A stretch of 64,000 bases of DNA from Candidatus Omnitrophota bacterium (GTDB taxonomy: Bacteria > Omnitrophota > Gorgyraeia > Zapsychrales > Fredricksoniimonadaceae). Below the pieces are notes generated by a model. That model was not told where the DNA came from. It saw only the letters and a program-made list of their open reading frames with translations, and searched no databases. Made by a program: the position numbers and the translations under genes. Positions 28,105 through 46,021 of the stretch are shown here, in pieces. The stretch covers positions 7,762 through 71,761 of the forward strand of contig JADFYF010000001.1 in the NCBI GenBank assembly GCA_015233165.1, read 5' to 3'. How positions within the stretch are numbered: position 1 is the first letter of the stretch; each line of letters starts with the position of its first letter.

Positions 28105-28857
28105 ATGTCCAAAAAAATAAATTTAACACTTAAAGTCTGGCGTCAGAAAAATTGTAAATCTCCGGGTGCTTTTGAAGTTTATGAAGCTAAGGGTATTGAT
28201 ACGGATATGTCTTTCTTGGAAATGCTCGATGTGGTTAATGAGCGTTTGACTAAAGAAAATATAGACCCCATTTCTTTTGACCATGACTGCCGTGAGGGGA
28301 TTTGTGGGACGTGTGGATCTGTAGTTAATGGTCAGGCGCATGGACCTGTAAAAGGAACAACGCTTTGTCAGCTGCATATGCGTAATTTTACCGACGGTCA
28401 GTTGATTGTTATTGAGCCGTTTCGCGCTAAAGCCTTCCCAGTGATCAATGACCTTGCTGTGGATCGTTCATCGTTTGACCGCATTATTCAATCCGGTGGT
28501 TTTATCTCTATCAAAACAGGTCAGGCCCCTGATGCTCATTCCTTGCCTGTTCTTAAGGGTAGATCCGATTCGGCGATGGACGCTGCCCAATGTATTGGTT
28601 GTGGTGCTTGTGTGGCTGCTTGTCCTAATGCTGCCGCAATGCTCTTTGTGTCTGCTAAGGTCTATCATCTTAATATCTTACCTCAAGGGGAACCTGAACT
28701 TAAAACCCGTACCATTAATATGGTCAAACAAATGGATAAGGAAGGTTTTGGTAACTGCTCAAACGAATACGAATGTGAAGCTGCCTGTCCTAAAGAAATC
28801 AGTGTTTCGCATATCGCCCGCCTTAATCAACAACATCGTAAATCTAATTTTACATAA
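28105..28857 (+). CDS. sdhB: Succinate dehydrogenase / fumarate reductase iron-sulfur subunit
   Basis: [2Fe-2S] [10 protein letters not shown]; [4Fe-4S]/[3Fe-4S] motifs [12 protein letters not shown] and CEAACP. Confidence 0.95.
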
Positions 28858-28932
28858 TATTACTTCTGTAATATACGTATATCCAGGAGGCATTGATATA
28901 ACTCCTAGTTGTTAATGAATAATATGAATGTG

Positions 28933-28961
28933 TTGACTTTTATATTAAAAATCATTAATCT
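28933..28961 (+). promoter_or_regulatory. Sigma70-like promoter candidate (TTGACT-N17-TAATCT) upstream of hemN
   Basis: TTGACT at 28933-28938 and TAATCT at 28956-28961, in a 165-bp AT-rich gap. Confidence 0.35.
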
Positions 28962-29022
28962 TTCCATCCATAAGTTTGTTAAAATCTTTTATAAATTCGT
29001 CTAATTCTTAGGTTGTGTTTTT

Positions 29023-30399
29023 ATGTCTTTACCTATTGATAAACAAACTTTAACCAAATACGATGTCGCAGGTCCTCGCTACACCAGCTATCCAACGGCT
29101 CCAGAATGGTCTAAGGAGATCCGTGTTCAAACCTATATTGATAAATTGAAGGATTTTGGACAAAACGACAAGACATTATCGTTGTATATTCATATTCCTT
29201 TTTGTGAAAGTCTTTGCTATTTCTGTGCCTGCAATAAGGTTATTCGGGCTAATGAAGAGAGTGTGGGCGATGAGTTTTTGACACATTTATTTAAAGAGAT
29301 GGAGATGGTCGCTGCTCATATTGGTCCCCGTAAGATGATCCGTCAGTTGCATTGGGGAGGCGGGACACCTACTTATTTATCTGAGGCTCAGATTCAGAGG
29401 CTCTTTGCCAAGATCCAGTCGTTGTTTGATGTTGATTTTGATGGGGAGATTGCCATTGAGGTCGATCCTCGCACAGTTCCTTATAATAAGCTCAAGCTGT
29501 TGCGTGATATTGGCTTTAACAGGATTTCTTTAGGGGTTCAAGATTTTGATGATAAGGTGATGGATGATATCAATCGTATTCAGCCTTTTTCTCAGGTGAA
29601 ACAAATTACTGAGTGGTGCCGTGAGCTTCAGTATGCTTCTATCAATTTTGATGTGGTTTACGGCCTACCGTATCAGACAAGTGAGACATTTAAGAAAACC
29701 ATCGATGCTGTTATTTCTCTGTTGCCAGACCGCATCGCCATGTATAGTTTTGCCTATGTGCCCTGGCTTTCTAAACCTCAGAACAAGTTTAATCTTGAGG
29801 CGATCGCTCTTCATGAGGAGAAGTTAGATATCTTCATTCAGTCCCGCAACAACTTGTTAGAACACGGGTATCAGGCGATTGCCATGGATCATTTTGCGTT
29901 AAAGACGGACGGGATGGCTAAAGCCTTTAATGAGGGGTGTCTGCACCGTAATTTTATGGGGTATACACTTAAACCTGCTGATGAGTTTATTGGTCTGGGG
30001 CCTTCCGCGATTGGTTTTGTGGAAAATACGTATATCCAGAACGTGAAGGTTCTTCCCGAATACTACGCTTTGCTCTCAGAGAACACCTTGCCGGTAGAGC
30101 GTGGTAAGATCTTAACTCAGGATGACCGTATTCGTCAGTGGGTGATTAATCATCTGATGTGTCAGTTTGAAGTGGATAAGGATGAGTTTTTTAAGACATT
30201 TGGATTTGAATTTGAAGATTATTTTATGGAAGAATCCAGCCATCTTCGTAATTGTGTGGAGGATGGTCTTATTAGAGAAGACTATAAGGCCATTAAGGTG
30301 ACAGATCTGGGGCGTATTTTTGTCCGCAATGTCTGTATGGGCTTTGATTGGTATCTGCGTCAGAAAGACGGGCATAAGAGATTTTCTAGGACTGTTTAA
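29023..30399 (+). CDS. hemN: Oxygen-independent coproporphyrinogen III oxidase (radical SAM)
   Basis: Radical SAM cluster motif CESLCYFCAC, HWGGGTPTYL and an HemN C-terminal domain. 458 aa. Confidence 0.9.
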   Translation: MSLPIDKQTLTKYDVAGPRYTSYPTAPEWSKEIRVQTYIDKLKDFGQNDKTLSLYIHIPFCESLCYFCACNKVIRANEESVGDEFLTHLFKEMEMVAAHIGPRKMIRQLHWGGGTPTYLSEAQIQRLFAKIQSLFDVDFDGEIAIEVDPRTVPYNKLKLLRDIGFNRISLGVQDFDDKVMDDINRIQPFSQVKQITEWCRELQYASINFDVVYGLPYQTSETFKKTIDAVISLLPDRIAMYSFAYVPWLSKPQNKFNLEAIALHEEKLDIFIQSRNNLLEHGYQAIAMDHFALKTDGMAKAFNEGCLHRNFMGYTLKPADEFIGLGPSAIGFVENTYIQNVKVLPEYYALLSENTLPVERGKILTQDDRIRQWVINHLMCQFEVDKDEFFKTFGFEFEDYFMEESSHLRNCVEDGLIREDYKAIKVTDLGRIFVRNVCMGFDWYLRQKDGHKRFSRTV

Positions 30400-30409
30400 T
30401 TTTAATAGT

Positions 30410-30488
30410 TGTCACCCCCGAATGTTTTAGTCGGGGGGCCAGAGTTGCTATAACTCTGGATTCCCGACAAAAGCATTCGAGAATGACA
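30410..30488. repeat. 79-bp palindromic intergenic repeat, copy 2 (between hemN and hemE), inverted relative to copy 1
   Basis: Its reverse complement aligns with copy 1 arm for arm. The 35-nt left arm differs at 1 position. Confidence 0.85.
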
Positions 30489-30501
30489 AAAAGGAGAAAA
30501 A

Positions 30502-31506
30502 GTGGCTAAAAATGTAAAGACAACAGAAGAACAAAGTAACTTCTTATTAGCATTTGAAGGAAAGAACAAACAAGTTCCTGTTTGGTTTATGCGTCAAGCG
30601 GGGCGTTATTTGCCTCAATATCAGGCCCTGAAGGCTAAGACTCCCTTAAGAGACTTGTTTCGTAATCCCGAAATTGCAGGTGCGATCACCTTGCAACCTC
30701 TTGAGATTCTTGGGGTGGATGCTGCTATTCTATTTGCCGATATCATGACCATGCCCTCCGGGATGGGATTTGATATCGATTTTGTGGATGGTAAAGGCCC
30801 TGTGATTAGTAATCCTATCTATACCGTGGCGGATCTAAAGCGTTTGGGAAAATATAGCGGACTTGAATATGTGACCCGGACCATTCAGTTGATTAATGCG
30901 GTTCTGCCGCCATCCATTCCTTTAATTGGGTTTGCCGGTTCTCCCTATACCGTTTTAACGTATTTATGTCATAAACAGAATCGTCTGATGTTTGCCGACC
31001 CCAAAGCCTTCCATAAATTTATGGACTTGTTAACAGACAATACGATCACCTATCTTAAACAGCAACAGAAGGCAGGGGTTAAGTCCTTTCAATTGTTTGA
31101 CACTTGGGCTGGCACCTTACGCCATGAAGATTACAAGGTTTTTGTTCTGCCCTATGTGCAGAGAATATTCAATTCTGTGGATCTACCATCCATTTACTAT
31201 CTAAAGAACTGCGCTCATTTGATGGATTTGATGGATAAAAGTGGAGCAGACATGCTTTCCGTTTGTGAAACGGTCAATATTGCCAATATTAAAACAACTA
31301 AAGGTATCCAAGGAAACTTCCTTAACAGCCTGCTCTATGCGGATGAAGCTGTGATAGTTGCTGAAACCAGAAAGCTTCTGAAAGCCGCTAAAGCGAATCA
31401 CCGCAAATACGTTTTTAACTTAAATCATGGTGTGATGCCAGATGTTGATCCCTTGAAGCTGAAGTTGATTGTGGAAGAAGTTCACAATTTTTCCTGGAGT
31501 AAGTAG
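30502..31506 (+). CDS. hemE: Uroporphyrinogen decarboxylase
   Basis: PVWFMRQAGRYLPQY signature. GTG start with an AAGGAG RBS. Confidence 0.9.
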   Translation: MAKNVKTTEEQSNFLLAFEGKNKQVPVWFMRQAGRYLPQYQALKAKTPLRDLFRNPEIAGAITLQPLEILGVDAAILFADIMTMPSGMGFDIDFVDGKGPVISNPIYTVADLKRLGKYSGLEYVTRTIQLINAVLPPSIPLIGFAGSPYTVLTYLCHKQNRLMFADPKAFHKFMDLLTDNTITYLKQQQKAGVKSFQLFDTWAGTLRHEDYKVFVLPYVQRIFNSVDLPSIYYLKNCAHLMDLMDKSGADMLSVCETVNIANIKTTKGIQGNFLNSLLYADEAVIVAETRKLLKAAKANHRKYVFNLNHGVMPDVDPLKLKLIVEEVHNFSWSK

Positions 31507-31534
31507 AAATTTCAAGGAATAAGCATAGAATTCC

Positions 31535-31672
31535 ATACTGCACACATATATGCAGTATTGGCAGTATAAGGAATAATAGTTCTTAATACTGCATAAAGTT
31601 GAAATAAGTTAAAATATATTTTTGCATTATTGATGCAGTATTATTAAGTGTTTTTGCAGTATTTTGCAGTAT
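31535..31672. promoter_or_regulatory. Array of TGCAGTAT octamers (6 perfect, 2 one-mismatch) in the hemE-hemY intergenic region
   Basis: Perfect + strand copies start at 31551, 31634, 31655 and 31665. Perfect - strand copies are at 31535-31542 and 31586-31593. Variants are GGCAGTAT at 31560 and TGCATTAT at 31623. The first pair forms ATACTGCA-N8-TGCAGTAT. Confidence 0.6.
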
Positions 31673-31684
31673 TAAAAGGGGTTT

Positions 31685-32905
31685 ATGAAGAAAATAATTA
31701 TCATTGGTGGTGGGATTTCTGGCCTGGCTGTTTTACATTATATCAAGAAACGCTACCAAGAGACCGTTGAGGTGACTCTTATAGAAAAGAATTCGGATGT
31801 GGGAGGAACCATCGCCTCCTTTGAAAGTCAGGGTTCCATCTTTGAAACTGGTCCTAATGGATTTCTGACCAATCAACCCAATACCCTTGAATTTATCAAA
31901 GATCTTGGATTCTTAGATCAATTAATTGAGGCCAATGAGGATTCCAAGCGTCGTTATATTCAGATGAACGGCAAACTGCATCTTCTACCAATGGATCCTG
32001 TCAATTTCTTTAAAACACCTTTGTTGTCAGCAACAGAAAAGATTCGTCTTATTCAGGGATTATTTAAGAAAAATATTTCTAAAGATCAAAGTGTTTATGA
32101 TTATACAGCAGAACGTTTTGGTCCCGCTGTTGCCAGTCGACTGGTGGATCCTTTTTTAACAGGAATTTATGCCGGGGATATTAAACGTTTACACATGGGC
32201 GCAGCTTTTCCTAAGATGGGAACGCCTAAGGGCCAGCCTAAGGCGAAAATGTGTTCCTTTGTTAATGGAATGGGGAGTTTGATTGGGCAGCTGGCTTTGA
32301 AGTACAAGTCTTCGATTCAGATAGGAGTGGAGGTTAAGGATCTTGCTGAACTTAAGGCGGATACGATTATTTGTGCTACCCCGGCCTATGTGGCAGCAGA
32401 GTTGTTTGGAATGCCGATTCTTCAAGATATTTATTATTCTCCGGTTGCCGTAGTGGGAATGCTCATCAAGAAGGACTCTTTTAAAAGGCTGCCGGATGGT
32501 TTTGGTTATCTGATTCCTTCTGGCGAAGGCAAGGAAGTTTTAGGCGTTCTGATTGAGAGCAATGTCTATACCCGTCAAACATCTAAGGATCAGATCTTCC
32601 TTCGCGTTATGATGGGAGGGGCTCATCATCCGGGGATAGCTTCTTATACTAAGGAACAGCTTCAGGTTTTAGCGTTGAAAGAGATTGATGAAATTTACGG
32701 ACTCAAAGAAGATTCTAGTAGCATTTCTGTTAAATTATGGACCAAGGGTATTCCTCAGTATGAGCTGGATTATCCGGCGATTCGTCAAGCTATTACAGAA
32801 GAATTAAAGAAAAAACAGAACCTGTTTTTATGCGCTAATTACCTGGATGGCATTTCATTTAACGACTGTATCAAGAATGCAAAAGAGTTGGTGGATTCGT
32901 TGTAA
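31685..32905 (+). CDS. hemY: Protoporphyrinogen/coproporphyrinogen oxidase, FAD-dependent (HemY/CgoX family)
   Basis: N-terminal dinucleotide fold IIIIGGGISGLA...EKNSDVGG, amine-oxidase-like length, and haem-biosynthesis context. Confidence 0.75.
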   Translation: MKKIIIIGGGISGLAVLHYIKKRYQETVEVTLIEKNSDVGGTIASFESQGSIFETGPNGFLTNQPNTLEFIKDLGFLDQLIEANEDSKRRYIQMNGKLHLLPMDPVNFFKTPLLSATEKIRLIQGLFKKNISKDQSVYDYTAERFGPAVASRLVDPFLTGIYAGDIKRLHMGAAFPKMGTPKGQPKAKMCSFVNGMGSLIGQLALKYKSSIQIGVEVKDLAELKADTIICATPAYVAAELFGMPILQDIYYSPVAVVGMLIKKDSFKRLPDGFGYLIPSGEGKEVLGVLIESNVYTRQTSKDQIFLRVMMGGAHHPGIASYTKEQLQVLALKEIDEIYGLKEDSSSISVKLWTKGIPQYELDYPAIRQAITEELKKKQNLFLCANYLDGISFNDCIKNAKELVDSL

Positions 32906-32959
32906 AAGAGTTAAGATTTCACTATTTTATAAACAAACTTATGATAGGATGGAGCAATT

Positions 32960-34162
32960 ATGAAATGGATTATTTGTGTTTTTCTATTAGTCTTTAGCGG
33001 TTGTCAGCAATCTTCCAAAGAGAATCATTATACGGAAGTTGTTCCTCAAGCCCCTGCTCCAACTGTTCCAGCTACTCCTAAAATGGATTCTAGTGCTGAT
33101 CCTCACGCGGGGATGGATATGGATATGTCTGCGATGGGTGGAATGATGCCTGGTCTAGAAAATTCTGTGGCTAAGAATATCAGCTACGGTTGGACAGTTC
33201 CAGAAGGATGGAAGGAAGAAGCAGGTCAAGGCATGCGTTTAGCAACCTTTCATTTAACGTCAGATGAAAAAGCCATTGATTCTTCGATTGTCTCATTAGC
33301 TGGTGTGGCGGGAGGTTTAGAGGCTAATTTAAAACGTTGGATGGGACAAATCGGTTTAGAATCTTCGGCGACTGATTTAACAGGACTCATTAATGCAGCA
33401 TCTTCTATTAAGATTAAGGGTGGTCAAGAAGGCAAGGTTTTTGACTTCACAACGATTCAATTACAGGGTAAACCAACTGATAAAAGTATGATTGTTGTTA
33501 TGCTTCCTATGAATAACGCCACCTTGTTTGTCAAGGTGACTGGCACCCTGGAAACAGTTAAGAAGAACAAAGATGATTTCTTTAAGCTCGTGCAATCCAT
33601 CGAACCTAAGGGGGATGCCAGTTCAGTGACTGCTAATCCATTGGTTGGTGGTGACATGAAGGATCCTCATGCAGGAATGAATATGAATTCCGTGGGATCT
33701 ATGATGGAAAAATTAGGACCTCCAGTCAGCAATATTTCATGGGCTGTTCCTGAAGGGTGGAAGGAAGAAGCTGCTAAACATATGCGTATGGCTACTTTTC
33801 ATTTGGCCAGCGATCCTACGCTCATCGATTGTGGCATGATTGCTCTTGCCGGTGCTGCGGGTGGAGTTGAGCCTAATTTAGCCCGTTGGGCAGGACAATT
33901 AGGTTTGTCTGATTCTCCAGATACAATCGCAAAGCTAATGGCTGCTGCAATGGCAGTAAAGACTAAGGATGGCAAGGATGTTCAAGTCTATGACTTTACG
34001 GCGATTCAAACCAATGCTCAGAGTACAGATAAAAGTATGATTGCGGCCATATTATCGGTCGACAATTTAAGTATTTTTATTAAAATGACAGGCACTCTGG
34101 ACGCTATTAAGAAAAACAAAGAATCTTACTTAAAATTAATTAGCTCCATAGCCCATAAATAA
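32960..34162 (+). CDS. Lipoprotein made of two tandem ~175-aa repeats, each preceded by a His/Met-rich motif; unknown function
   Basis: Lipobox VFSGC. Repeat 1 is DPHAGMDMDMSAMGGMM...WTVPEGWKEEAGQGMRLATFHL...TGTLETVKKNKDDFFKLVQSI. Repeat 2 is DPHAGMNMNSVGSMM...WAVPEGWKEEAAKHMRMATFHL...TGTLDAIKKNKESYLKLISSI. Confidence 0.7.
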   Translation: MKWIICVFLLVFSGCQQSSKENHYTEVVPQAPAPTVPATPKMDSSADPHAGMDMDMSAMGGMMPGLENSVAKNISYGWTVPEGWKEEAGQGMRLATFHLTSDEKAIDSSIVSLAGVAGGLEANLKRWMGQIGLESSATDLTGLINAASSIKIKGGQEGKVFDFTTIQLQGKPTDKSMIVVMLPMNNATLFVKVTGTLETVKKNKDDFFKLVQSIEPKGDASSVTANPLVGGDMKDPHAGMNMNSVGSMMEKLGPPVSNISWAVPEGWKEEAAKHMRMATFHLASDPTLIDCGMIALAGAAGGVEPNLARWAGQLGLSDSPDTIAKLMAAAMAVKTKDGKDVQVYDFTAIQTNAQSTDKSMIAAILSVDNLSIFIKMTGTLDAIKKNKESYLKLISSIAHK

Positions 34163-34167
34163 ACTTT

Positions 34168-35271
34168 ATGATGAAATTTTTAAGCTCAACACGTATTACG
34201 GTGGTTTGTCTGTTTCTGTTATTTATTTTAACCTTCTGGGGGACGATTGCCCAAGTCCAGCAAGGGTTATATAGCGCCCAGGAACGGTTTTTTAATTCTT
34301 TTTATTTTCTAGCTGCAGGTTTTATTCCTTTCCCAGGGGCTCAACTCGTTCTTTGGGTCTTATTTATCAATTTACTTTGCATGTTTATATTGTCTTATAA
34401 GAAATTCTTCCAGTGGTCGAATTTGGGCAATCTTATAATTCATTTGGGGATTCTTCTTTACTTTGTAGCTGCTTTTATGGTTTTTCATGTTTCAAGTGAG
34501 TCCTATATCCGTTTTACTGAGGGGCAGACAACAAATGTCTCTAATTCTTATACGGATTGGGAGGTTGCTTTTTGGGTTGATACCAATGGAAAGAAGCGCG
34601 AAATAACAGCCGTTGATACAAAGGTTTTTAAACCGGAGTACATCATTCCTACGGATACCAAAGATTTTTCTTTAACTGTCAAACAATACTATTCCAATAG
34701 TGACGCGTTTAGTGATGGAAGTGGAAAGAAAAACCCAAGAATTCTTAATGAAGAAGGAATTACTCTTTTAACTCCCAAGCCTATTCTTAAAGAAAGAGAA
34801 CAGAATGTGGCGGGTGGAGTTTTTAATATCAAATTCGATGGAAAGTCCTATACCTTAATCCTCTATGGCATTGAAGTAAATCCTACGGAAGTGATGATCG
34901 CTGGGAAGAAGTATAACTTTATTTTACGTCATAAGCATTTCCCCTTGCCCTTTACTCTAAAATTAGATCACTTTAAAACAGAGTTTTATCCTGGAATGGA
35001 TATGGCTAAGAGTTACGAAAGTCTGGTTACGATTTCAACAGGAACTTTGGAGCGACAGGTAAGGATTTATATGAATAATCCTTTAAGATATAACGATTAC
35101 ACCGTCTACCAAGCGTCCTATGATGCGGATAGTACTGGTCGACAATATACCACCTTAGCGGTGGTTCGGAATTCAGCTCGGATAATGCCTTATGTGTCTT
35201 GTTTAGTTGTTTTCTTTGGGCTGGCCCTACATTTCTTAATGCAGGCATTTATTTCAAGAATAAAACCATGA
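34168..35271 (+). CDS. ccsB: System II cytochrome c biogenesis protein CcsB/ResB-like (short, 367 aa)
   Basis: N-terminal TM helices, a periplasmic domain, C-terminal NDYTVYQASYD and a final TM. ATGA overlap with ccsA. Confidence 0.7.
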   Translation: MMKFLSSTRITVVCLFLLFILTFWGTIAQVQQGLYSAQERFFNSFYFLAAGFIPFPGAQLVLWVLFINLLCMFILSYKKFFQWSNLGNLIIHLGILLYFVAAFMVFHVSSESYIRFTEGQTTNVSNSYTDWEVAFWVDTNGKKREITAVDTKVFKPEYIIPTDTKDFSLTVKQYYSNSDAFSDGSGKKNPRILNEEGITLLTPKPILKEREQNVAGGVFNIKFDGKSYTLILYGIEVNPTEVMIAGKKYNFILRHKHFPLPFTLKLDHFKTEFYPGMDMAKSYESLVTISTGTLERQVRIYMNNPLRYNDYTVYQASYDADSTGRQYTTLAVVRNSARIMPYVSCLVVFFGLALHFLMQAFISRIKP

Positions 35272-37130
35272 AAATAAAAATACTCTTAACAATTGCTTTC
35301 ATATTATCTTCTTTTCATATGGCTTTTGCTGAGCCGGGGATTAAAGATTTTAAGATTTTTAAGAATATCCCTGTTCTTGATCAAGGGCGACTTAAACCTA
35401 TAGATACTTTTGCTCGCAGCTTATTGACGCAGTTTTCAGGTAAGGATCATTATGAGAAACAAGATGCGTCCTCTTGGTTAGCCTCGTTGTTTTTTAATCC
35501 TGATTCAACCGTCAATGACAAGATTTTTCAAATCAATAATCCTGATACCGCAACAGCACTAGGGATTACACCTGACCAGCACCGTCGTTATACTCCTGCT
35601 CAACTTCAAAAAGCCTATCCCAAGTTAGTGGAACTTCAAGATGCGGCCAGAAAGATTCCTGAAAAAGAACGCAATCTGGTGGAAAATGAAATCTTAAGAG
35701 TCTTTGAAAATATCAATATTTACGCAGACCTATCTCGTTCATTTTTATTTACATCCCCTCAAAAAGATTTAACGATCACCTCAAAAGCTTTAAAAACTAA
35801 GATGGGTTTACCGCTGGAACAGAATGAATTTAGTTTTATCGATATAGCATTAAAAGCGGATGTCATGACTGAAATGGCTCAGTCCTTAGAGAAAAAGTCT
35901 CAAAGTCAATTTACAGCAGATGAGTTAGAAATTTATAACGTTACTAATAATCTTTTTGGCATGTCTCAAAAATATAAAGAGATGCCTTCTTTTACGGTTC
36001 TTCCATCAGCGACAGAAAAAGGACGATGGTTAAATCCGTGGGATGCTCTTATTTTAGACTTTAGCAATCAACAAACCCGACAGCTGTTATCTTATTGGAA
36101 TACTATGGCAATTAGCTTTAGACAGGATAATGGGGTGGAGTTTAATGTTGCTGCGCATTTATATATGAACCAAATTAAGGATGCCTTGTCTAACGACGAA
36201 CTTAAAAGTTTCAATAAATTTCCATTAGAGTTGTTTTATCATTCGGCGAGTCCGTTTACCTTGTCGATTATGTTTTACATTTTAACCTTTATTTTCTTTA
36301 TTATTTCCTTTTCATCCTCGAAGCAGATCTGGTATACGTTGGCAATGTGGAGTACCTTTGCTGGATTTGCGATTCATACGATAGGTTTACTGATGCGTAT
36401 CATCATTATGGCGCGCCCTCCGGTGTCGAGCCTTTATGAAACCTTTATCTTTGTTGGTTTTATTACCGTGTTATTAGGCTTAATTATTGAACACTTCAAT
36501 AGACAATGGTTGGGATTTGTGACAGCAGCGATTAGTGGGACAGCATTATTATTTATTGCAAATAAATATAGTGCCGAAGGAGATACGCTTAAGATGCTCG
36601 TTGCTGTTCTTAATTCTAACTTTTGGTTAGCGACCCATGTGACAACAATTACGATGGGTTACGCTGCGACCTGGGTTGGGGGAGTATTGGGTCATATTTG
36701 GTTGTTACAGGCCGTTTTTGGTAAGGACAATGAAACTCTGGATAAAACCTACAAAACAACCTTAGGAATTCTAGGAGTAGCTCTGACGTTAACCTTCCTT
36801 GGAACTAATCTTGGTGGTATCTGGGCAGATCAAAGCTGGGGGAGATTCTGGGGGTGGGATCCAAAAGAGAACGGAGCATTAATGATTGTTCTCTGGACAG
36901 CTTTATTATTTCACGCCAAGGTGGCTAAGATGATAGGACCTTTAGGGATGGCTGTCGGCGCTGTCTTTGGTATGATGGTCGTGATGTGGGCGTGGTTTGG
37001 TGTCAATCTATTAAGCGTGGGGCTTCATTCCTATGGTTTTACTGCCGGTATTGCAACAACCTTGATCGCTTACGCTGTGATTGAAATTGTTTTTATGATG
37101 GTAACCATTTGGTTTATTTCTAGAAAATAA
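35268..37130 (+). CDS. ccsA: System II cytochrome c biogenesis protein CcsA/ResC with ~320-aa N-terminal periplasmic extension
   Basis: WWD-type haem-handling motif WGRFWGWDPKENGAL and multiple TM helices in the C-terminal half. The start was moved from 35199 to ATG 35268 (signal peptide MKIKILLTIAFILSSFHMAFA). Confidence 0.85.
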   Translation: MKIKILLTIAFILSSFHMAFAEPGIKDFKIFKNIPVLDQGRLKPIDTFARSLLTQFSGKDHYEKQDASSWLASLFFNPDSTVNDKIFQINNPDTATALGITPDQHRRYTPAQLQKAYPKLVELQDAARKIPEKERNLVENEILRVFENINIYADLSRSFLFTSPQKDLTITSKALKTKMGLPLEQNEFSFIDIALKADVMTEMAQSLEKKSQSQFTADELEIYNVTNNLFGMSQKYKEMPSFTVLPSATEKGRWLNPWDALILDFSNQQTRQLLSYWNTMAISFRQDNGVEFNVAAHLYMNQIKDALSNDELKSFNKFPLELFYHSASPFTLSIMFYILTFIFFIISFSSSKQIWYTLAMWSTFAGFAIHTIGLLMRIIIMARPPVSSLYETFIFVGFITVLLGLIIEHFNRQWLGFVTAAISGTALLFIANKYSAEGDTLKMLVAVLNSNFWLATHVTTITMGYAATWVGGVLGHIWLLQAVFGKDNETLDKTYKTTLGILGVALTLTFLGTNLGGIWADQSWGRFWGWDPKENGALMIVLWTALLFHAKVAKMIGPLGMAVGAVFGMMVVMWAWFGVNLLSVGLHSYGFTAGIATTLIAYAVIEIVFMMVTIWFISRK

Positions 37131-37913
37131 ATGGCAGATTCCTTCAAATATGTTTTTGGTCCCGTTCATTCCTGGCGTCTAGGTCGATCCTTAGGAATTG
37201 ATCCACTCTCTTTGGAAAAGAAAATCTGCAACATGGATTGTATTTATTGTCAGTTAGGACGATCGTCCCAGCTAGCGCATGACCGTGAAGTTTTTATACC
37301 TACCCAAGAAGTGCTCGATGAATTAAAACAGATACCGTTAAATTCCGTAGATCATATCACCTTTTCAGGACGAGGTGAGCCCACCTTAGCTTTAAATCTT
37401 GGCGAGATGATCAGGGCTGTTAAAGTAATTCGCCCGGAGAAGGTGGCGGTCATTACTAACTCTTCTTTGATGAACAGGGAAGAGGTTCGTCATGATTTAA
37501 TGGCCGCAGATTATGTTTTAGCTAAATTAGACGCTGGTAATCAAATGGATTTTGAGATGGTGGATCAAGGGCAGACTCTTGATTTATCCAAAATTATTCA
37601 AGGCATTTCTGATTTTCGAAAAGTTTTTAAAGGCAGGTTGGCCCTACAAATAATGCTGGTCGACGATAATATTAAAAATGTCGAAGAGATTGCTAAGGTC
37701 TCTCGTCAAATAAAAGCGGATGAAGTTCAATTGGATACTCCACTAAGACCATCAGGAGTTCAACCTTTATCCAAAGAACGAATTTTTTGGGCCAAAGAAT
37801 ATTTTAAAGATATGACTGTTGTTACTGTTTATGATTTGCCTCTTCAAGATTATAGCCCCATGGACGATAAAGCAACACAGAGACGACATGGGAATTATAA
37901 AAAGAGGCTTTAA
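37131..37913 (+). CDS. Radical SAM protein of unknown specificity
   Basis: CNMDCIYC (CX3CX2C) cluster motif after FGPVHSWRLGRSLGIDP. The ATG is immediately adjacent to the ccsA stop. Confidence 0.7.
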   Translation: MADSFKYVFGPVHSWRLGRSLGIDPLSLEKKICNMDCIYCQLGRSSQLAHDREVFIPTQEVLDELKQIPLNSVDHITFSGRGEPTLALNLGEMIRAVKVIRPEKVAVITNSSLMNREEVRHDLMAADYVLAKLDAGNQMDFEMVDQGQTLDLSKIIQGISDFRKVFKGRLALQIMLVDDNIKNVEEIAKVSRQIKADEVQLDTPLRPSGVQPLSKERIFWAKEYFKDMTVVTVYDLPLQDYSPMDDKATQRRHGNYKKRL

Positions 37914-37960
37914 TTGCGTAATAGTACGTAGCATGTTAGGTAGTTCGCCTACTATTAATA

Positions 37961-37990
37961 TTGATTATAACCTTTACAATACATTATAAT
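37961..37990 (+). promoter_or_regulatory. Sigma70-like promoter candidate (TTGATT-N18-TATAAT) upstream of hemA-1 and the cytochrome cluster
   Basis: TTGATT at 37961-37966 and consensus TATAAT at 37985-37990, about 60 nt upstream of the hemA-1 ATG. Confidence 0.45.
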
Positions 37991-38052
37991 TTAAGTCCGT
38001 TACAGTTGTGAAATTTTCAACCCCGTTATCATAAATTGATCTAAGGATAAGA

Positions 38053-39105
38053 ATGAAAATACTCACAGTAGGTATTAATCATAAAACTTCTTCCATTGAT
38101 TTACGTGAAAAGTTTTATTTGTCGCCCCTGGAACGTGAACTTTTAATTTCAGACTTTAAAACTGATCCCTCTGTAGTATCCGCAGTCATTTTATCTACAT
38201 GTAATCGATGCGAAATATATGCGACAGTTGTCGATGATTGTCAACCCAAGAGTCTTTTGGATAAACTCTTTCGTGTTAAACGTCAGGCCATGAGTTTAGA
38301 CCTTCAGCAAATGTTCTATTTTATAGAGGGAGCTGAAGCGGTTAAACATTTCTTACAAGTTGCTTGTGGGTTAGATTCTTTAATCTTAGGAGAGAAACAA
38401 ATTTTAGGTCAAATTAAAGAGGCCGTGGCTTTATCGAGACAAAACGGTTTAATGGACAAGGTTCTCAATATCCTAACTAATTTTGTTTTAGAGACGGGCA
38501 AGAAAGCGCGTCAAGATACGCAAATTGATTTTGGCGGAGTATCGGTGAGTGCGGCTGCTGTTAATATGGCTAACAACATTTTAGGTGGCCTAGAGGATAA
38601 AACAGTTTTAGTTCTCGGCTCTGGAAAAATGGGACAATTAGCCTTGAATAATTTACAACAGAAAAAGGTTAAGCAGGTGTTTTTAATGAATAGGACAACT
38701 GAAAAAGCTGTTGTTGTCGCCGAGGAATTTAAGGCGGAGTGTGTGCCCTTCTGGAATATGAAGGAAAACTTAGCTAAGGTGGATGTGTGCATTTGTTCCT
38801 CAGGAGCTCCTCATTATTTAATTTCCAAAGATTTAGTTGCCAGTATTATGGCCACACGCTTTACACCTCTAGTGTTGGTCGATATTTCCATGCCACGCAA
38901 TATTGATCCCGCCGTCGCTGAAGTTTCTAATACCCGATTGATCGCCTTAGACGATTTAGATAAAGTCATCGAGGGGAATCTTCAAAAACGCAAGGATGCT
39001 GTCATCTTGGTCAATAATTTAATTTCACGTAAGGTGGAAGAATTTTATAAAGCGATATCAAAGATTGAAGCACTGAGTTCTGAGAAAATTTTATTATCAA
39101 AATAA
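38053..39105 (+). CDS. hemA: Glutamyl-tRNA reductase, paralogue 1 (350 aa)
   Basis: LSTCNRCEIY (catalytic Cys), GLDSLILGEKQILGQIK and the NADPH fold LVLGSGKMG. Confidence 0.9.
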   Translation: MKILTVGINHKTSSIDLREKFYLSPLERELLISDFKTDPSVVSAVILSTCNRCEIYATVVDDCQPKSLLDKLFRVKRQAMSLDLQQMFYFIEGAEAVKHFLQVACGLDSLILGEKQILGQIKEAVALSRQNGLMDKVLNILTNFVLETGKKARQDTQIDFGGVSVSAAAVNMANNILGGLEDKTVLVLGSGKMGQLALNNLQQKKVKQVFLMNRTTEKAVVVAEEFKAECVPFWNMKENLAKVDVCICSSGAPHYLISKDLVASIMATRFTPLVLVDISMPRNIDPAVAEVSNTRLIALDDLDKVIEGNLQKRKDAVILVNNLISRKVEEFYKAISKIEALSSEKILLSK

Positions 39106-39132
39106 AATTCACATTAGCGAGGACGATAGGTT

Positions 39133-39411
39133 ATGAAAAGAAAACAAATTATTATTTTAGGAATCGGTTTAATCTTCACAATGATGACTATTCCTGCTCA
39201 AGCGAGTTTATCAGAAGTTAAGAAATACAAAGAGGCGTTTGCTGATGCAAAGCCTAAATGTGTCGAATGCCACGTCGATGCAATGCCTAAGAAGGCGGAT
39301 GGACAGCATGAATTAAATTCCTATGGTAAGGCGGTTGTTGCAGTCGCAGCGCAGCCAACGGCAGATACTTATAAAAAGGTTGGAAGCATTGAAAGTTTTG
39401 GTAAGAAATAA
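39133..39411 (+). CDS. Small secreted monohaem c-type cytochrome, paralogue A (92 aa precursor)
   Basis: Signal peptide ...IPAQA and a single CVECH. The conserved block is YKEAFADAKPKCVECHVDAMPKKADGQHELNSYGKA. GAGGA RBS. Confidence 0.75.
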   Translation: MKRKQIIILGIGLIFTMMTIPAQASLSEVKKYKEAFADAKPKCVECHVDAMPKKADGQHELNSYGKAVVAVAAQPTADTYKKVGSIESFGKK

Positions 39412-39430: not shown

Positions 39431-39712
39431 ATGATAAACACAAATTCTAAGATTTTTTACTTTTTATTAGCAGCTGTACTGGTTCTTGGTTTTTCTATTC
39501 CGGCCCAAGCCAATATGAAAATTGTTAAAGCTTACAAAGAAGCTTATCCAGATGAAAAGCCAAAATGTATTGGTTGCCATGTGGACGCCATGCCCAAAAA
39601 AGATGGCGCGCATGACCCCAATGATTATGGTAAGGCTTTAAAAGCAGCAGCAGCGGAAGTAACAGTGGATTCAATTAAGAAGGTTGGAAAGATCGAAGAT
39701 TTTAAGAAATAA
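39431..39712 (+). CDS. Small secreted monohaem c-type cytochrome, paralogue B (93 aa precursor)
   Basis: Signal peptide ...IPAQA and a single CIGCH. It shares the YKEAYPDEKPKC..CHVDAMPKK...H..N.YGKA block. AGGAG RBS. Confidence 0.75.
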   Translation: MINTNSKIFYFLLAAVLVLGFSIPAQANMKIVKAYKEAYPDEKPKCIGCHVDAMPKKDGAHDPNDYGKALKAAAAEVTVDSIKKVGKIEDFKK

Positions 39713-39743
39713 GAGCGAAATAACAACAGTAACGGGAGGGCTT

Positions 39744-40520
39744 ATGATAGCCAAGGAAAGAATATTAAGTACCATTAAAGCGCTGGTTTTAGTTTTTGCG
39801 CTGACCTTAGGAGGGGTTTTGACATTGGGCATTCCTTCTGTCCATGCGAATCAGACCAAGGTCAATGAAATGTTGTATTTAAAGAAGGCCACGTATGTGG
39901 GAATGGACGTTTGCGTCACCTGTCATGATAAGGAATATAAGGAATACAAGCTTTCAACCCATGCACGTATCAATATTAAGAATGATACGACGGGTGCTGA
40001 AGGGTGTGAGGCTTGCCATGGCCCAGGTTCCATTCACGTGGATAACGGTGGTGGCAAGGGGACTATGATTAACCCTAAGAAAGATCCGGAAGTCTGTTTC
40101 AGTTGCCATACGGATAAAAAGATTCAATTCCGCCTGCCATATCATCACCCCGTTCTTGAAGGTAAGATGACCTGTACGGATTGCCATGATGCTCATGGTA
40201 TGGATGTTAGACCTTGGACAGCGACCTCTGAAAAGGGCGTTAATGAAACCTGTTTCAAGTGCCATTCAGATAAACGCGGACCGTTTGTCTTTGCTCATGA
40301 CGCGATGAGAGACGGCTGTACAACTTGCCATCAGGTTCATGGTTCAGTTAATGACAAGATGTTGTTGGCAAGGGATGTTAATCTCTGCTTACGTTGTCAT
40401 GCTTATCCAAGTTACGCAAACGGGCATTATGACGACTTTGCTAGAGGCGGAGCATGCTGGGCAGCTGGATGTCATCAGCAAATTCATGGGTCTAATTTTT
40501 ATCCAAGATTCACCTACTAA
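39744..40520 (+). CDS. Periplasmic octahaem c-type cytochrome, MtrA/DmsE/OmaB-like
   Basis: Seven CXXCH motifs (CVTCH, CEACH, CFSCH, CTDCH, CFKCH, CTTCH, CLRCH) plus a c3-type CX4CH (CWAAGCH). The doubled-CXXCH pattern CFKCHSDKRGPFVFAHDAMRDGCTTCHQVHGS is typical of MtrA. The start was moved to ATG 39744 behind a GGGAGGG RBS. Confidence 0.8.
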   Translation: MIAKERILSTIKALVLVFALTLGGVLTLGIPSVHANQTKVNEMLYLKKATYVGMDVCVTCHDKEYKEYKLSTHARINIKNDTTGAEGCEACHGPGSIHVDNGGGKGTMINPKKDPEVCFSCHTDKKIQFRLPYHHPVLEGKMTCTDCHDAHGMDVRPWTATSEKGVNETCFKCHSDKRGPFVFAHDAMRDGCTTCHQVHGSVNDKMLLARDVNLCLRCHAYPSYANGHYDDFARGGACWAAGCHQQIHGSNFYPRFTY

Positions 40521-40542
40521 TTCTTAACGTGAGGAATAACAT

Positions 40543-42708
40543 ATGAGAAGTCTTAGAGTAATACTCTCAATAGCAATAACAGTTTACCTTTCAGGAATAG
40601 GGAATCTGGTGGTGTTTGCTCAAGAAACAACACCTGCCCTTAGTGTCACTGTTGCTCCTGTGCAATATGCTAGTGTCAACGGGAGTGTGGCCAAATTCAG
40701 AGCGCTTAACTGGACAAAGGATGGAGGAGATGCTGGCATTTCCGATATAACCTTCCTCAAACAAATTAACAAGGATATCTCCATAGAAGCCGAAGGGAGT
40801 GCTTTCTTAAAGACAAATAACAATACTGGACACCTGCTACTTAAAAAAGATGATCTTGCCTTCTTACAGATCGATTATAATGCGTTTAGAAAGTATTATG
40901 ATGGAACAGGCGGGGTCTATCCTTATGAAATTAATACTAGTAGTACTAGTGATCTCACTACTTATGTTGATTATGGCAAAATTCCGGATCAATATCAAGC
41001 AGCTCAACCCAGCAGTCCAGATCTTCAGATGGATGTCAGTTTCTTCAAATTAGAAGCTGGTTTAGGGCCAGTGAATGATCCTTTTTTGGATGTAGCCTAT
41101 CAACATAATTCCAAGGATGGAAATAAATCGCTTTTACAGTGGGTTTATGCTTACCCTTCTCTTAACGGTACTCCCAAAACTGTTTCACAATCCTATAGGA
41201 AAATTGGACCAGCTTGGGCTGCGGTCAATAATTATACGGATACTGTTACTCTGAAAGAAAAGAAGGAAATTGCAGGAATTACCTTTAAAGGAGTGCAGAC
41301 GGCTGAATTTGATTACAATCACAGTTTGACGTATATGCAGTATTTGAATGATACTGTTTCAGGTTCACAAAATCAACTTAACACTGTTTATGATAATCCA
41401 GATGCTAAGTTGTTTGGTTCAGGCGTAAGAGCTGAAAAATGGATGCTCAATGATAAAACCTTTGCAGCCTTGGGGTATCATTACAGCCATATACACTCTA
41501 CAGATATTCTGCAAAGAATGGTCTATACTTCTGCGACTCTTGGTGGAGTAGCAACGGCTTTACCTACCAATTCAAGTGCCAGTGGTTGGAGTCTTGCTCA
41601 GGCTTTACAAGATAGTCATGTCTGGGTAGGAAATGTTAACTCTGAATTGACTTCAAACTTAACCTTTCTTGCAGACACCAGATATGAGCATAGTGGTGCC
41701 GAGGCAAATTCACAGTATTACCCTGGCACTGCTTTAACAACGGCCAATAATGAAGCTATGGAAAATCATCAGGATAACGTCGGCGAACATCTTGCTTTAC
41801 ATTATTCTGGCATTAGTCATACGACTTTGTATGCTGAAACCGATTTTCAACAAGGTAGGAATTGGGTCAGTGATCAGTTTAATACAGGTAGTGGTTCTAA
41901 TCCTGGTACTGATTTTTTAACCAGGCTTAATAGAATGCAAAGTGCTTCTTGGACTGCTGGAGGTAGAATCGTTCCTAACAGATTCTTTACCTTTACAACA
42001 CAGGTTAAAGCCCACGATAGAGTGGATAATTACGATACAATTTCAGATACGATAACTAAACCAGGTGGTAGCACTTTTAGTGATAGGATTATTCTGCTAT
42101 CTTCTTTGAGAGTCAGAGGAGTAGAAGAAAGTTCTACGCTTGGCTGGAAGCCTTATCGCTGGCTCCAAAATTCTTTTAGGTATCAGTTCTCTGATAATGT
42201 TTATAGCCCAGTGGGTATTGCAGCTACACCTTCTGATATATCTGTAAATCATATGCTCACATCGAAGTATACCTATGAAATTACAGTACAGCCGATAGAT
42301 CCTCTTTTATTCATGCTATCTTATTCGCATGTGCAGGATTATATCAGGAGCATTACAGCATCAAATCCTGAAGCGACAAATTACAATACAACACCGAATA
42401 TTCCGACTTTCAACTCAGGGTACAATAGCTGGGTGTTTTCATCAAGCTATTCTCCAAGAGGGGATTTGACTTGGAATAATACGGTAAGCTATACAATTTC
42501 TCCTAATTACGTCAATTTTACTAACGGCATTCCTTTAGGTTCAGATTTTAGGGAGCTTGATTTTGGCACAGGGCTTGATTGGTCTTATCGTAAGTGGTTG
42601 AAGGTTAGTCCAGGGTATGAACATGCTTCTTACCGTGATAATGCTTTAACTGGAGCCGGTAATTATTCAGCGAATATTTTCAAATTAAGCCTTAGCTGTA
42701 AGTGGTAA
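40543..42708 (+). CDS. Large outer-membrane beta-barrel protein, candidate MtrB/PioB-like sheath for the upstream cytochrome
   Basis: Signal peptide ending VFAQE. 721 aa, rich in alternating aromatic/polar beta-strand-like segments, G/N/S/T/Y-rich, with a C-terminal ...KLSLSCKW (aromatic terminal residue). It starts 22 nt after the MtrA-like gene. Confidence 0.6.
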   Translation: MRSLRVILSIAITVYLSGIGNLVVFAQETTPALSVTVAPVQYASVNGSVAKFRALNWTKDGGDAGISDITFLKQINKDISIEAEGSAFLKTNNNTGHLLLKKDDLAFLQIDYNAFRKYYDGTGGVYPYEINTSSTSDLTTYVDYGKIPDQYQAAQPSSPDLQMDVSFFKLEAGLGPVNDPFLDVAYQHNSKDGNKSLLQWVYAYPSLNGTPKTVSQSYRKIGPAWAAVNNYTDTVTLKEKKEIAGITFKGVQTAEFDYNHSLTYMQYLNDTVSGSQNQLNTVYDNPDAKLFGSGVRAEKWMLNDKTFAALGYHYSHIHSTDILQRMVYTSATLGGVATALPTNSSASGWSLAQALQDSHVWVGNVNSELTSNLTFLADTRYEHSGAEANSQYYPGTALTTANNEAMENHQDNVGEHLALHYSGISHTTLYAETDFQQGRNWVSDQFNTGSGSNPGTDFLTRLNRMQSASWTAGGRIVPNRFFTFTTQVKAHDRVDNYDTISDTITKPGGSTFSDRIILLSSLRVRGVEESSTLGWKPYRWLQNSFRYQFSDNVYSPVGIAATPSDISVNHMLTSKYTYEITVQPIDPLLFMLSYSHVQDYIRSITASNPEATNYNTTPNIPTFNSGYNSWVFSSSYSPRGDLTWNNTVSYTISPNYVNFTNGIPLGSDFRELDFGTGLDWSYRKWLKVSPGYEHASYRDNALTGAGNYSANIFKLSLSCKW

Positions 42709-42750
42709 ACAAGAAATAAATTATTATTTTCTTAGCAATAAAGAGAGATA

Positions 42751-42794
42751 AAAGATAGAATAAGATTCATTTCGGTGGGTTTTATTCTATCTTT
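42751..42794 (+). terminator. 13-bp perfect-stem hairpin with T-tail between the barrel gene and the nonahaem cytochrome gene
   Basis: AAAGATAGAATAA (42751-42763) pairs with TTATTCTATCTTT (42782-42794) across an 18-nt loop. This could be a partial terminator or an mRNA-stability element. Confidence 0.5.
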
Positions 42795-42812
42795 TTGTTG
42801 AGTCCAAAATTT

Positions 42813-44033
42813 ATGCGTATATTTTTTCTAATAGCTTTTTTTATAGGATACCCATTAAGTTTGGGCTTTGCTCAAGACGTTTCAAAGAATTACTGTATCT
42901 CTTGCCACGATGATCAGTGGCAGGATTTAAAAAATAGTATCCATGGGAAACAGGGGATTACCTGTGAGAAATGTCATGGGGGGGATTCTACCCAAAAAGA
43001 TAAAGAGTTAGCCAAAGCTCCTTCCACGGGATACGTTGGCGTTCCTGATAAAAATCAAATTGTTCAAATCTGTGGTACCTGCCATTCCAACGTCGAAGCC
43101 ATGAATTTTTATGGTATTCGCACCGACCAGCTTGCTAGATATAAAACCAGCATGCATGGCAAGAAACTTTTTAATGACAACGACAAAAATGTACCCGTGT
43201 GCAGTGATTGTCATGGGTATCATGATGTCGTCGATGTCACAGATCCTACCAGTCCTGTCTATCCTTTAAATGTTCCTAAAACATGCAATCGTTGTCATGG
43301 TAATGAGAAGCTCATGAAGCCCTATGGGATTCAGATGGACATGTTTGCAAAATATAAAGACAGCGTCCATGGTAAGGCTTTATTTGAAAAGAAAGATATT
43401 GGGGTTGCTACCTGTGTCAGTTGTCACGGAAGTCATGGAGCTTTGCCACCTGGCGTCAAACAGGTCGCTGATGCCTGTGGCAAATGTCATATGAATGAGA
43501 AGGATAACTTCCTTAAAAGTCCTCATGCTAAACTTATTGATCAAGGTAATTTTCCTCAATGCGTAGCTTGTCATAGTAATCATGGCATCCAACCTGTTGC
43601 TGTAACGTTGTACGATCAGGCTTGTGTTAAATGTCACCAGCCACAAACAGTTGCTTTTAAAGAAGGTCAGAAAATTAAAGGACTTTTAAGCAAAGCTCAA
43701 CAGGACTTACAAACGACACAACAGATTGTCAAACAAGCATCCATTGATGGTCTTTTTGTCGAGGAAGAAACAGCTATTTTAGAAGAGGCGAAGACTAAAG
43801 TTTTTGAAATGGGGCCAATGCAACATACTTTGTCCTATACTAATGTCGCCGAATTAGCCAAACAGGTCGATACGAAAACCAAGGATGTCCAAAATACGAT
43901 TCATGAAAAAAGACAAAGTTTGCAAATGCGTAAGATTGCCCTATGGCCCTTGTGGATCTTTATCATTATCATGATGACTGTTTTGTGTATTAGATATAAA
44001 CAATTAAGTTCTAACCACGATAAAAAACACTAA
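42813..44033 (+). CDS. Nonahaem c-type cytochrome with C-terminal membrane anchor; probable cytochrome c subunit of the adjacent Rieske/cyt b complex
   Basis: Nine CXXCH motifs (CISCH, CEKCH, CGTCH, CSDCH, CNRCH, CVSCH, CGKCH, CVACH, CVKCH). A signal peptide, a coiled-coil-like stretch and a C-terminal TM (IALWPLWIFIIIMMTVLCI) are present. Its stop overlaps the Rieske ATG. The start is ATG 42813, or possibly TTG 42795. Confidence 0.8.
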   Translation: MRIFFLIAFFIGYPLSLGFAQDVSKNYCISCHDDQWQDLKNSIHGKQGITCEKCHGGDSTQKDKELAKAPSTGYVGVPDKNQIVQICGTCHSNVEAMNFYGIRTDQLARYKTSMHGKKLFNDNDKNVPVCSDCHGYHDVVDVTDPTSPVYPLNVPKTCNRCHGNEKLMKPYGIQMDMFAKYKDSVHGKALFEKKDIGVATCVSCHGSHGALPPGVKQVADACGKCHMNEKDNFLKSPHAKLIDQGNFPQCVACHSNHGIQPVAVTLYDQACVKCHQPQTVAFKEGQKIKGLLSKAQQDLQTTQQIVKQASIDGLFVEEETAILEEAKTKVFEMGPMQHTLSYTNVAELAKQVDTKTKDVQNTIHEKRQSLQMRKIALWPLWIFIIIMMTVLCIRYKQLSSNHDKKH

Positions 44034-44512: not shown

Positions 44513-44524
44513 GAATAGATAAAA

Positions 44525-45685: not shown

Positions 45686-45699
45686 AATAAAGGAGACAT

Positions 45700-45996: not shown

Positions 45997-46021
45997 ACAA
46001 AAGTCAATATTTTCTCACAAT

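Follow-up and report, generated by a model that had tools for sequence, protein, structure and literature searches.

Cytochrome c maturation by System II is viewed as a minimal pathway, made up of the CcsBA synthase and a thiol-reduction branch, in which thioether formation requires that haem be kept reduced. Many bacteria also encode, together with ccsBA or close by, the thiol-disulfide proteins ResA/CcsX and CcdA/DsbD, which work on the periplasmic side; they have a thioredoxin fold with CXXC or serve as a membrane electron shuttle. System I has, in addition, membrane-tethered periplasmic helpers for haem (CcmE, an OB-fold protein that forms a covalent His-haem bond) and for apocytochrome (CcmI, a TPR protein); we know of no described System II equivalent of either. 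Targeted literature searches turned up no report in which ccsBA operons contain a PsbP-fold lipoprotein gene, or any conserved third gene at all, and a survey of System II in anammox bacteria mentions no lipoprotein (PMC4222556). Here we describe such a gene, located directly upstream of ccsB and ccsA in a 64,000-nucleotide stretch of DNA (the window) from a Candidatus Omnitrophota bacterium (assembly GCA_015233165.1, contig JADFYF010000001.1, positions 7,762 to 71,761 of the forward strand). Its product is probably an unrecognised helper of the cytochrome c haem-attachment machine.

Two further sets of proteins are relevant to what follows. PsbP-family proteins stabilise membrane complexes, or help to assemble them, as extrinsic factors. 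Among them CyanoP, the cyanobacterial PsbP, is a lipid-anchored lipoprotein located beside a large complex on the outer face of an energy-transducing membrane, and its flexible N-terminal arm is functionally important. LpqN, DcrB and Apa/Mtc28 are lipoproteins or secreted proteins aiding inner-membrane machines, LpqN with MmpL transporters and DcrB in lipoprotein maturation. The second set comprises the periplasmic Cu(I) proteins, such as CusF, CopC/PcoC, CopI, SilE/PcoE and the Met-rich repeats of CopA/PcoA.

The features of the lipoprotein gene and of the two synthase genes that follow it in the window are these (nt, nucleotides; aa, amino acids; pLDDT, predicted local distance difference test of the AlphaFold2 model):

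32951 to 32954, + strand: Shine-Dalgarno-like GGAG, 5 nt 5' of the ATG (direct reading of the sequence)
32960 to 34162, + strand: tandem, predicted PsbP-fold lipoprotein gene, 400 aa (list of open reading frames)
32960 to 33004, + strand: predicted signal peptide and lipobox (MKWIICVFLLVFSG-C15), from the sequence
33026 to 33043, + strand: post-anchor segment HYTEVV (aa 23-28), conserved in nearly all homologues; pLDDT about 55
33044 to 33181, + strand: arm 1, an acidic His/Met linker with DPHAGMDMDMSAMGGMM (motif at 33098-33127); pLDDT below 50 at aa 29-72
33182 to 33604, + strand: globular domain 1 (about aa 75-215), predicted PsbP/Mog1-like fold (AlphaFold2 pLDDT above 90, Foldseek)
33605 to 33733, + strand: arm 2, a predicted disordered linker with DPHAGMNMNSVGSMM (motif at 33662-33688); pLDDT below 50 at aa 221-252
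33734 to 34159, + strand: globular domain 2 (about aa 259-400), predicted PsbP/Mog1-like fold (repeat alignment, AlphaFold2 pLDDT above 90, Foldseek)
34168 to 35271, + strand: ccsB/resB, 367 aa (Pfam ResB, PF05140, E 3.4e-19), 5 nt past the lipoprotein stop
35271 to 37130, + strand: ccsA, 619 aa, ATG at 35271, with the WWD motif WGRFWGWDPKENG (Pfam PF01578, E 1.4e-20)

The open reading frame starts with ATG and its stop codon ends at 34162, so that it lies, as a first-pass annotation of the same DNA had noted, 5 nt before the ATG of ccsB at 34168. The three genes are tightly packed, since the ATG of ccsA and the stop codon of ccsB share one nucleotide. Co-occurrence with ccsBA across genomes had been set beforehand as a check on a link with cytochrome c assembly, and the linkage turned out to be conserved in both directions. 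In the forward test, an alignment of the globular domain was used to scan GTDB genomes, which gave 48 loci whose open reading frames were screened by phmmer; three were cut by contig ends and left out. ResB and CcsA, or a fused ResB-CcsA, are adjacent to the lipoprotein gene in 39 of the 45 evaluable loci (38 downstream, 1 upstream), and the linked loci span Omnitrophota, Verrucomicrobiota, Kiritimatiellia, Planctomycetota and Fibrobacterota. The six loci without ResB and CcsA come from two Pyrinomonadaceae, two Kangiella-type bacteria, one Planctomycetaceae and one Lujinxingia. In the reverse test, metagenomes were scanned with an alignment of the window-type ResB subtype. Eighty loci were recovered, 76 of them evaluable (at least 700 nt upstream), and the lipoprotein gene lies directly upstream in 66. 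The same arrangement is found in ten further loci that were looked up individually (L001-L008, L010 and L060), which include Omnitrophota-type contigs, an Akkermansiaceae metagenome-assembled genome (MAG), a fused ResB-CcsA locus and a three-domain form of the lipoprotein.

One-, two- and three-domain versions keep the linkage alike, and the genes on the far side of the lipoprotein differ between lineages and are unrelated to one another. By co-location and co-orientation, the lipoprotein gene is thus a member of the System II ccsB-ccsA module. The link with cytochrome c assembly that the first-pass annotation had proposed is strongly supported by this adjacency in at least five phyla, by the unrelated far-side genes and by a His motif on the CcsA of Fibrobacterota (described below), and we regard a functional coupling of the lipoprotein to CcsBA as likely.

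Unlinked, distant homologues occur in Kangiella, Pyrinomonadaceae, a Planctomycetaceae MAG and Lujinxingia. The neighbours examined (L045, L053 and L056) are housekeeping genes, and such contexts in Kangiella, Pyrinomonadaceae and Lujinxingia are uninformative on function. A Methylacidiphilales MAG carries an unlinked paralogue of 508 aa (P0076; L009, 8001-9527) about 1.4-3 kb upstream of a cluster encoding an OEP, a CusB-like adaptor and an RND pump.

A search with the window protein found a 100% identical hypothetical protein in a Candidatus Omnitrophica MAG and retrieved 97 homologues. The N-terminus of the window protein, MKWIICVFLLVFSGC, consists of a short hydrophobic signal followed by the lipobox FSGC with Cys15, which fits the pattern [LVI/F][ASTVI][GAS]C; the trait is kept among the homologues, and a crude pattern finds a lipobox-like motif in 118 of 143 family representatives. 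The protein is accordingly predicted to be a bacterial lipoprotein processed by signal peptidase II. Both the lipobox and the two repeats had been seen in the first-pass annotation. The repeats (about aa 45-218 and 233-400) are 51% identical, with 70% positives and a BLASTP E of 5e-61, a similarity that is far beyond chance for the aligned sequences. A segment located 5-10 residues beyond the lipidated Cys is kept family-wide as R/H-x-Y-x-E-V/I. Its Verrucomicrobia version is KVYRVAKE, and either this or ITxYxVPKE is found across Verrucomicrobia and Planctomycetes. In Gemmata-type forms a remnant mini-domain, made of two strands and one helix, comes after the post-anchor segment.

A profile of the single domain matches 9,589 representatives of 50%-identity clusters at E<=1e-3, of which 6,087 remain at a threshold of E<=1e-10 and 1,533 at one of E<=1e-30. 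The family includes forms with one, two and three domains, and ten long members contained no other known domain type. In the alignment of the domain, the (near-)invariant positions are W-x-x-P-x-G-W, M-R-x-A-x-F, G-x-A-G-G-x-x-x-N-x-x-R-W-x-G-Q, one Asp and F-x-K-x-x-G. Sequence and profile searches found no Pfam, NCBIfam or PDB sequence family that spans the window protein, the matches in the PDB being of chance level. Pfam PKD_6 (PF19408) is reached at 25.9 bits against a cut-off of 25, with only profile positions 27-64 of 82 matched. The match covers 38 residues at the W-x-x-P-x-G-W strand and the predicted fold is no PKD beta-sandwich, so that it was set aside as a chance or partial match.

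The predicted structure is more informative. An AlphaFold2 single-chain model, built from an alignment of 43 sequences, has a mean pLDDT of 80.8. Foldseek against the PDB gave 22 matches at E<=1e-3 (best E 5.6e-6), with target-normalised TM-scores of about 0.45-0.66. PsbP, CyanoP, Apa, BT_1490 and the Jonesia protein 3lyd are at the top. LpqN, Tsi3, Mog1 and DcrB are among the matches just below that threshold, and EagT6 was also matched. As modelled, both domains belong to the Mog1/PsbP-like fold superfamily, an alpha-beta-alpha sandwich with helices on both sides of a central antiparallel beta-sheet. At the sequence level, the window protein and 20 family members scanned stay under the Pfam thresholds for PsbP, PsbP_2, Lpp-LpqN and DcrB, Lpp-LpqN reaching only E 0.1 for one family member. 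A distant multi-domain relative (P0110) passes PsbP_2 with 29.1 bits, the cut-off being 27. It is a sequence bridge to the PsbP superfamily, the relation to named families being at superfamily level only. The window protein therefore shares with PsbP and CyanoP the same predicted sandwich; unlike them, it is tandemly duplicated, armed with His and Met, and syntenic with a haem lyase instead of a photosystem. With LpqN, DcrB and Apa/Mtc28 it has the fold in common, whereas the partner machine differs and these proteins lack the His/Met arms. A very large family, whose core members have no Pfam or NCBIfam model, thereby gains its first functional context.

The first-pass annotation had proposed a periplasmic metal or haem chaperone, and would have counted it against this proposal if the repeat matched a characterised family with no part in metal or haem handling. 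Such a match exists at the level of the fold (PsbP/Mog1); at the level of the sequence family, the window protein has none. Judging from the model, the globular part of the repeat adopts a fold that serves mostly for docking to membrane complexes and is not recognised as one for metal or haem, and any ligand binding would therefore need to come from the disordered, acidic His/Met arms. A thiol-redox role, of the kind played by ResA/CcsX and CcdA/DsbD, was rejected because the window protein has no CXXC and its predicted fold is PsbP-like, not that of thioredoxin. Besides the lipobox Cys, no Cys is conserved among the homologues; a semi-conserved one (in AIDC) is missing in Fibrobacterota, and the window protein has Ser at this position in repeat 1.

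The two stretches of the model with pLDDT below 50 both hold a DPHAG motif: DPHAGMDMDM at aa 47-56 and DPHAGMNMN at aa 235-243. In the 97 homologues of the first search, one to four copies of the D-P-H-A-G core precede nearly every globular domain, and the core is conserved across phyla. All the motifs quoted in the first-pass annotation are present, including W(T/A)VPEGWKEEA, MR(L/M)ATFHL, GG(L/V)E(A/P)NL(K/A)RW(M/A)GQ(I/L)GL, TDKSMI and TGTL..KKNK. One of them needs correction, since the invariant core ends at D-P-H-A-G and the next residue, given there as Met, is more often Leu (DPHAGLD 78 times, DPHAGMD 21 times among the 97 homologues). The wider sample contains the variants DPHAF[LM], MPxDDIHA and LPPGHP, and one Gemmata-group form (Frigoriglobus, L047) ends with a C-terminal MMPPGHP. 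In Fibrobacterota, the arms of the lipoprotein are Met/Gly/Pro-rich stretches with Met and without His.

Arm composition was taken from the 42 residues preceding each domain. The 129 linkers of ccs-linked members average 3.0 Met, 1.1 His, 4.2 Asp plus Glu and 1.8 Lys plus Arg, and are thus net acidic. The linkers of unlinked members, six in number, are poorer, with 1.0 Met and 0.7 His. The ligand set and the composition of the arms resemble the Cu(I) sites of CusF, of the Met/His repeats of CopA/PcoA and of SilE/PcoE. The window protein shares with these, and with CopC/PcoC and CopI, the H-x-x-M-x-M set and an acidic, repetitive, apparently disordered and Met-rich make-up, although the commonest variant of the motif has Leu at the first Met position. 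The fold differs from theirs, and the genetic context is haem synthesis and a haem lyase, not cop or cus genes. The lipoprotein has no Pfam or NCBIfam match to the copper chaperone families CusF, CopC, PCuAC and Sco, and it is not homologous to CopA/PcoA, SilE/PcoE or CopI either. A protein search with the motif alone (four DPHAG repeats) for other arm-bearing domain families returned no matches, the query being probably too low in complexity.

Two observations connect the lipoprotein with the synthase itself. First, the CcsA of Fibrobacterota (L026-L041) carries His motifs, LPDGHP..DPHAGMGMGPHGHG, between the signal peptide and the conserved periplasmic domain; examples of CcsA His motifs are LPDGHPDVSGDPHAGMGMGPHGHGSMP, LPDGHPDISNDPHTGNG, MDPHGGAGMP and PGSHPP. 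The His-motif pattern matches 58 of the 129 open reading frames of the lipoprotein family, 12 CcsA frames and 29 of the 3,090 other frames of the same loci. The presence of the same kind of His-arm motif either on the lipoprotein or on CcsA argues for work at the periplasmic face of the synthase. Second, in one clade (L114-L116, L119, L121 and L124), ResB is shortened by about 125 aa of its periplasmic domain (about aa 128-253 of the window ResB), and the lipoprotein gene is absent from L114, L115, L121 and L124, the ResB-deletion loci with upstream sequence. L115 is otherwise syntenic, with a CNNM gene and a YceI-like gene upstream as in lipoprotein-bearing loci such as L001.

The synthase of the window is of an unusual subtype, CcsA being long (619 aa) and ResB just 367 aa. 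The Cytochrom_C_asm core of CcsA lies at aa 386-586, with a partial match to NCBIfam TIGR03144; the approximately 385 residues before it comprise a signal or anchor and a periplasmic region without a Pfam match. Every ccs-linked locus has either this long-CcsA/short-ResB layout or a fusion of about 1,320 aa. The size of an insertion in the periplasmic part of CcsA (about aa 195-278 in the window) was considered as a correlate of the presence or domain number of the lipoprotein and was discarded, one-domain carriers being found both with and without it.

The account that we favour, tentatively and at somewhat less than an even chance, is that the protein is a dedicated, lineage-specific periplasmic accessory lipoprotein of CcsB-CcsA whose arms offer His and Met ligands to ferrous haem. 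The N-terminal lipid would tether it to a membrane, and the two PsbP/Mog1-fold domains would dock on the periplasmic domains of CcsB/CcsA, as CyanoP and PsbP do on photosystem II. The flexible acidic arms, with DPHAG[LM]DM and Met-rich stretches, would then supply a soft metal centre in the external active site with His and Met side chains as ligands. The most likely target would be the ferrous iron of exported haem, or of haem just attached to a nascent (multi)haem cytochrome, and His/Met ligation would protect the haem from oxidation and from loss of solubility up to the point at which the native ligands replace the arms. Ferrous haem is preferred as the target because of the context of haem synthesis and haem lyase genes, and because c-type haem has His and Met as its axial ligands and Met ligation favours Fe(II). 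Contact between the protein and CcsBA is an inference, as is the nature of the ligand; the specific haem-ligand mechanism of the arms, taken by itself, is somewhat less likely than not.

Several observations weigh against this account. The synteny counts were not de-replicated and each sample was drawn with a single peptide pattern. A sister locus (L075) has no lipoprotein gene and yet a full-length ResB, and the co-occurrence of the ResB deletion with the loss of the lipoprotein, which amounts to a single evolutionary event, is suggestive at most. AlphaFold2 places no arm onto its own domains. Net acidic arms favour cations and disfavour contact with the haem propionates, and periplasmic proteins that bind Cu typically have repeats of the D-H-x-x-M-x-M type. 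The arms cannot be the universal function, since in some ccs-linked members they lack His or Met. Finally, CcsA and ResB of the window hold the canonical transmembrane and periplasmic histidines (the transmembrane H92 of ResB is invariant in the alignments), and no ligand is therefore obviously missing.

A more far-reaching version of the haem account would have a three-component System II in the Planctomycetes-Verrucomicrobia-Chlamydiae group and in Fibrobacterota. The lipoprotein would then be required, its mobile arms serving as transient axial ligands that take ferrous haem, or each freshly attached haem of a multihaem cytochrome, from the WWD site. We regard this as unlikely; were it true, it would mean a periplasmic haem hand-off step without counterpart in the current CcsBA model, and the His motifs on the CcsA of Fibrobacterota would be the same device built in cis.

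The closest rival is copper. The arms could be a sink, beside the active site, for Cu(I) or another soft metal (or for Zn/Cd) that shields the reduced CXXCH thiols of apocytochromes and the ferrous haem from poisoning or oxidation, the PsbP-fold domains merely holding the arms. The chemistry of this explanation is at least as good as that of the haem account: DPHAGMDM reads H-x-x-M-x-M, the arms are Met-rich and net acidic, and synteny and the motif on CcsA fit equally well. One unlinked paralogue is, moreover, the one located 1.4-3 kb from an RND/CusB-like efflux cluster, and copper toxicity is documented to strike the assembly of c-type cytochromes in the periplasm (PMC4600104). Nevertheless, no copA, cusF or multicopper oxidase gene lies beside the ccs-linked loci whose neighbours were examined, and the strict D-P-H-A-G, followed by Leu more often than Met, is more specific than the typical degenerate Met-rich Cu motifs. 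We are not aware of any haem lyase with a Cu-buffering subunit. With these points taken together, a copper sink seems to us possible, on the unlikely side.

The fold relatives suggest another function, that of an apocytochrome c holdase or escort. EagT6, LpqN and Tsi3 bind hydrophobic partners or peptides, and Met-rich flexible segments can bind peptides, as does the M domain of SRP54. Domains and arms together could thus bind unfolded apocytochrome, or a partly matured multihaem polypeptide, and feed it to CcsBA. The protein would be a System II counterpart of CcmI, analogous to CcmI or CcmE in its proposed role as a membrane-tethered periplasmic helper, with no homology to either. The carrier loci are rich in multihaem cytochromes, and a domain copy number of 1 to 3 would suit multivalent binding. 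This explanation leaves the invariant His in an acidic D-P-H-A-G unexplained, as well as the His motif on the CcsA of Fibrobacterota, and no substrate-like partner was identified; we hold it to be improbable.

A slightly less probable explanation, again a minor one, dispenses with ligands altogether. The lipoprotein would be a purely structural or assembly subunit that stabilises or gates the periplasmic domains of CcsB/CcsA, with DPHAG as a short linear motif that docks in a protein pocket. The match to the PsbP-type fold would be accounted for, since such proteins stabilise membrane complexes. The motif varies in copy number as an avidity motif would and can reside on either partner, and loss of the gene coincides with partial loss of the periplasmic domain of ResB. 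The model shows no docking of the motif on the protein's own domains, however, and the Met-rich stretches and the PxGHP and DDIHA variants resemble ligand chemistry more than one peptide epitope. It is very improbable that the lipoprotein serves the envelope in general, has no part in cytochrome c maturation and lies beside ccsBA by accident: the distant members located away from ccs genes and the many unrelated uses of the PsbP fold would agree with it, but the adjacency persists in 39/45 and 66/76 loci of five phyla despite changing far-side neighbours, the intergenic spacing is operon-like and an arm motif of the same kind occurs on CcsA.

Whatever its ligand, such a conserved third gene would give the System II pathway one more component. 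Most ccsBA loci of five lineages with abundant multihaem cytochromes (Omnitrophota, Verrucomicrobiota, Kiritimatiellia, Planctomycetota and Fibrobacterota) carry it. The lipoprotein would offer a handle on how exported haem stays reduced and moves on at the periplasmic face, and on how numerous CXXCH sites, or thiophilic metals, are dealt with by the synthase, and it defines a short, testable motif, D-P-H-A-G-[LM]-D-M.

On either side, the operon-like group of the window is flanked by the following genes:

31685 to 32905, + strand: protoporphyrinogen oxidase of the HemY type (TIGR00562, 233 bits against a cut-off of 98), upstream neighbour of the lipoprotein gene
37131 to 37913, + strand: radical SAM gene, 260 aa (Pfam), abutting the ccsA stop with a gap of 0 nt

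The upstream genes are sdhC, sdhA, sdhB, hemN (TIGR00538, 530 bits), hemE and the protoporphyrinogen oxidase gene, and the last of these adjoins the lipoprotein gene in L003 and L062 too. Past the radical SAM gene come hemA, two small c-type cytochromes, multihaem cytochromes and a Rieske/cytochrome b pair; hemE and hemA were named from a reading of the translations. A scan of 28800-39200 for promoters and terminators revealed nothing exceeding shuffled controls. The radical SAM protein has no NCBIfam equivalog, its best matches (MoaA-like and tungsten-cofactor maturase) being far under the cut-offs. A similar gene (about 262 aa) follows ccsA in L001, and in L005 it lies one gene further downstream, before nrdD/nrdG.

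The two small cytochromes (39133-39411 and 39431-39712) are tandem paralogous secreted monohaem proteins of 92 and 93 aa, with CVECH and CIGCH, which match no NCBIfam family. A respiratory cluster (39684-47659) encodes a multihaem cytochrome with paired CXXCH, a 721-aa protein (40543-42708) with no Pfam or NCBIfam match, a second multihaem cytochrome, a Rieske protein, cytochrome b and a NapC/NirT-like multihaem protein. The order of this cluster, including an unannotated protein of about 660-720 aa, recurs upstream of the lipoprotein gene in L003 and partly in L006 and L007. In L062, a frame of 596 aa (P0199, 6001-7791) joins protoporphyrinogen oxidase to the lipoprotein. A signal peptide and the lipobox VWGC occur at the junction (about aa 410-420), so that the gene caller has most likely run two in-frame genes together into an apparent fusion. 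This locus is syntenic with the window over sdhAB, hemN, hemE, the protoporphyrinogen oxidase gene, the lipoprotein gene, resB and ccsA.

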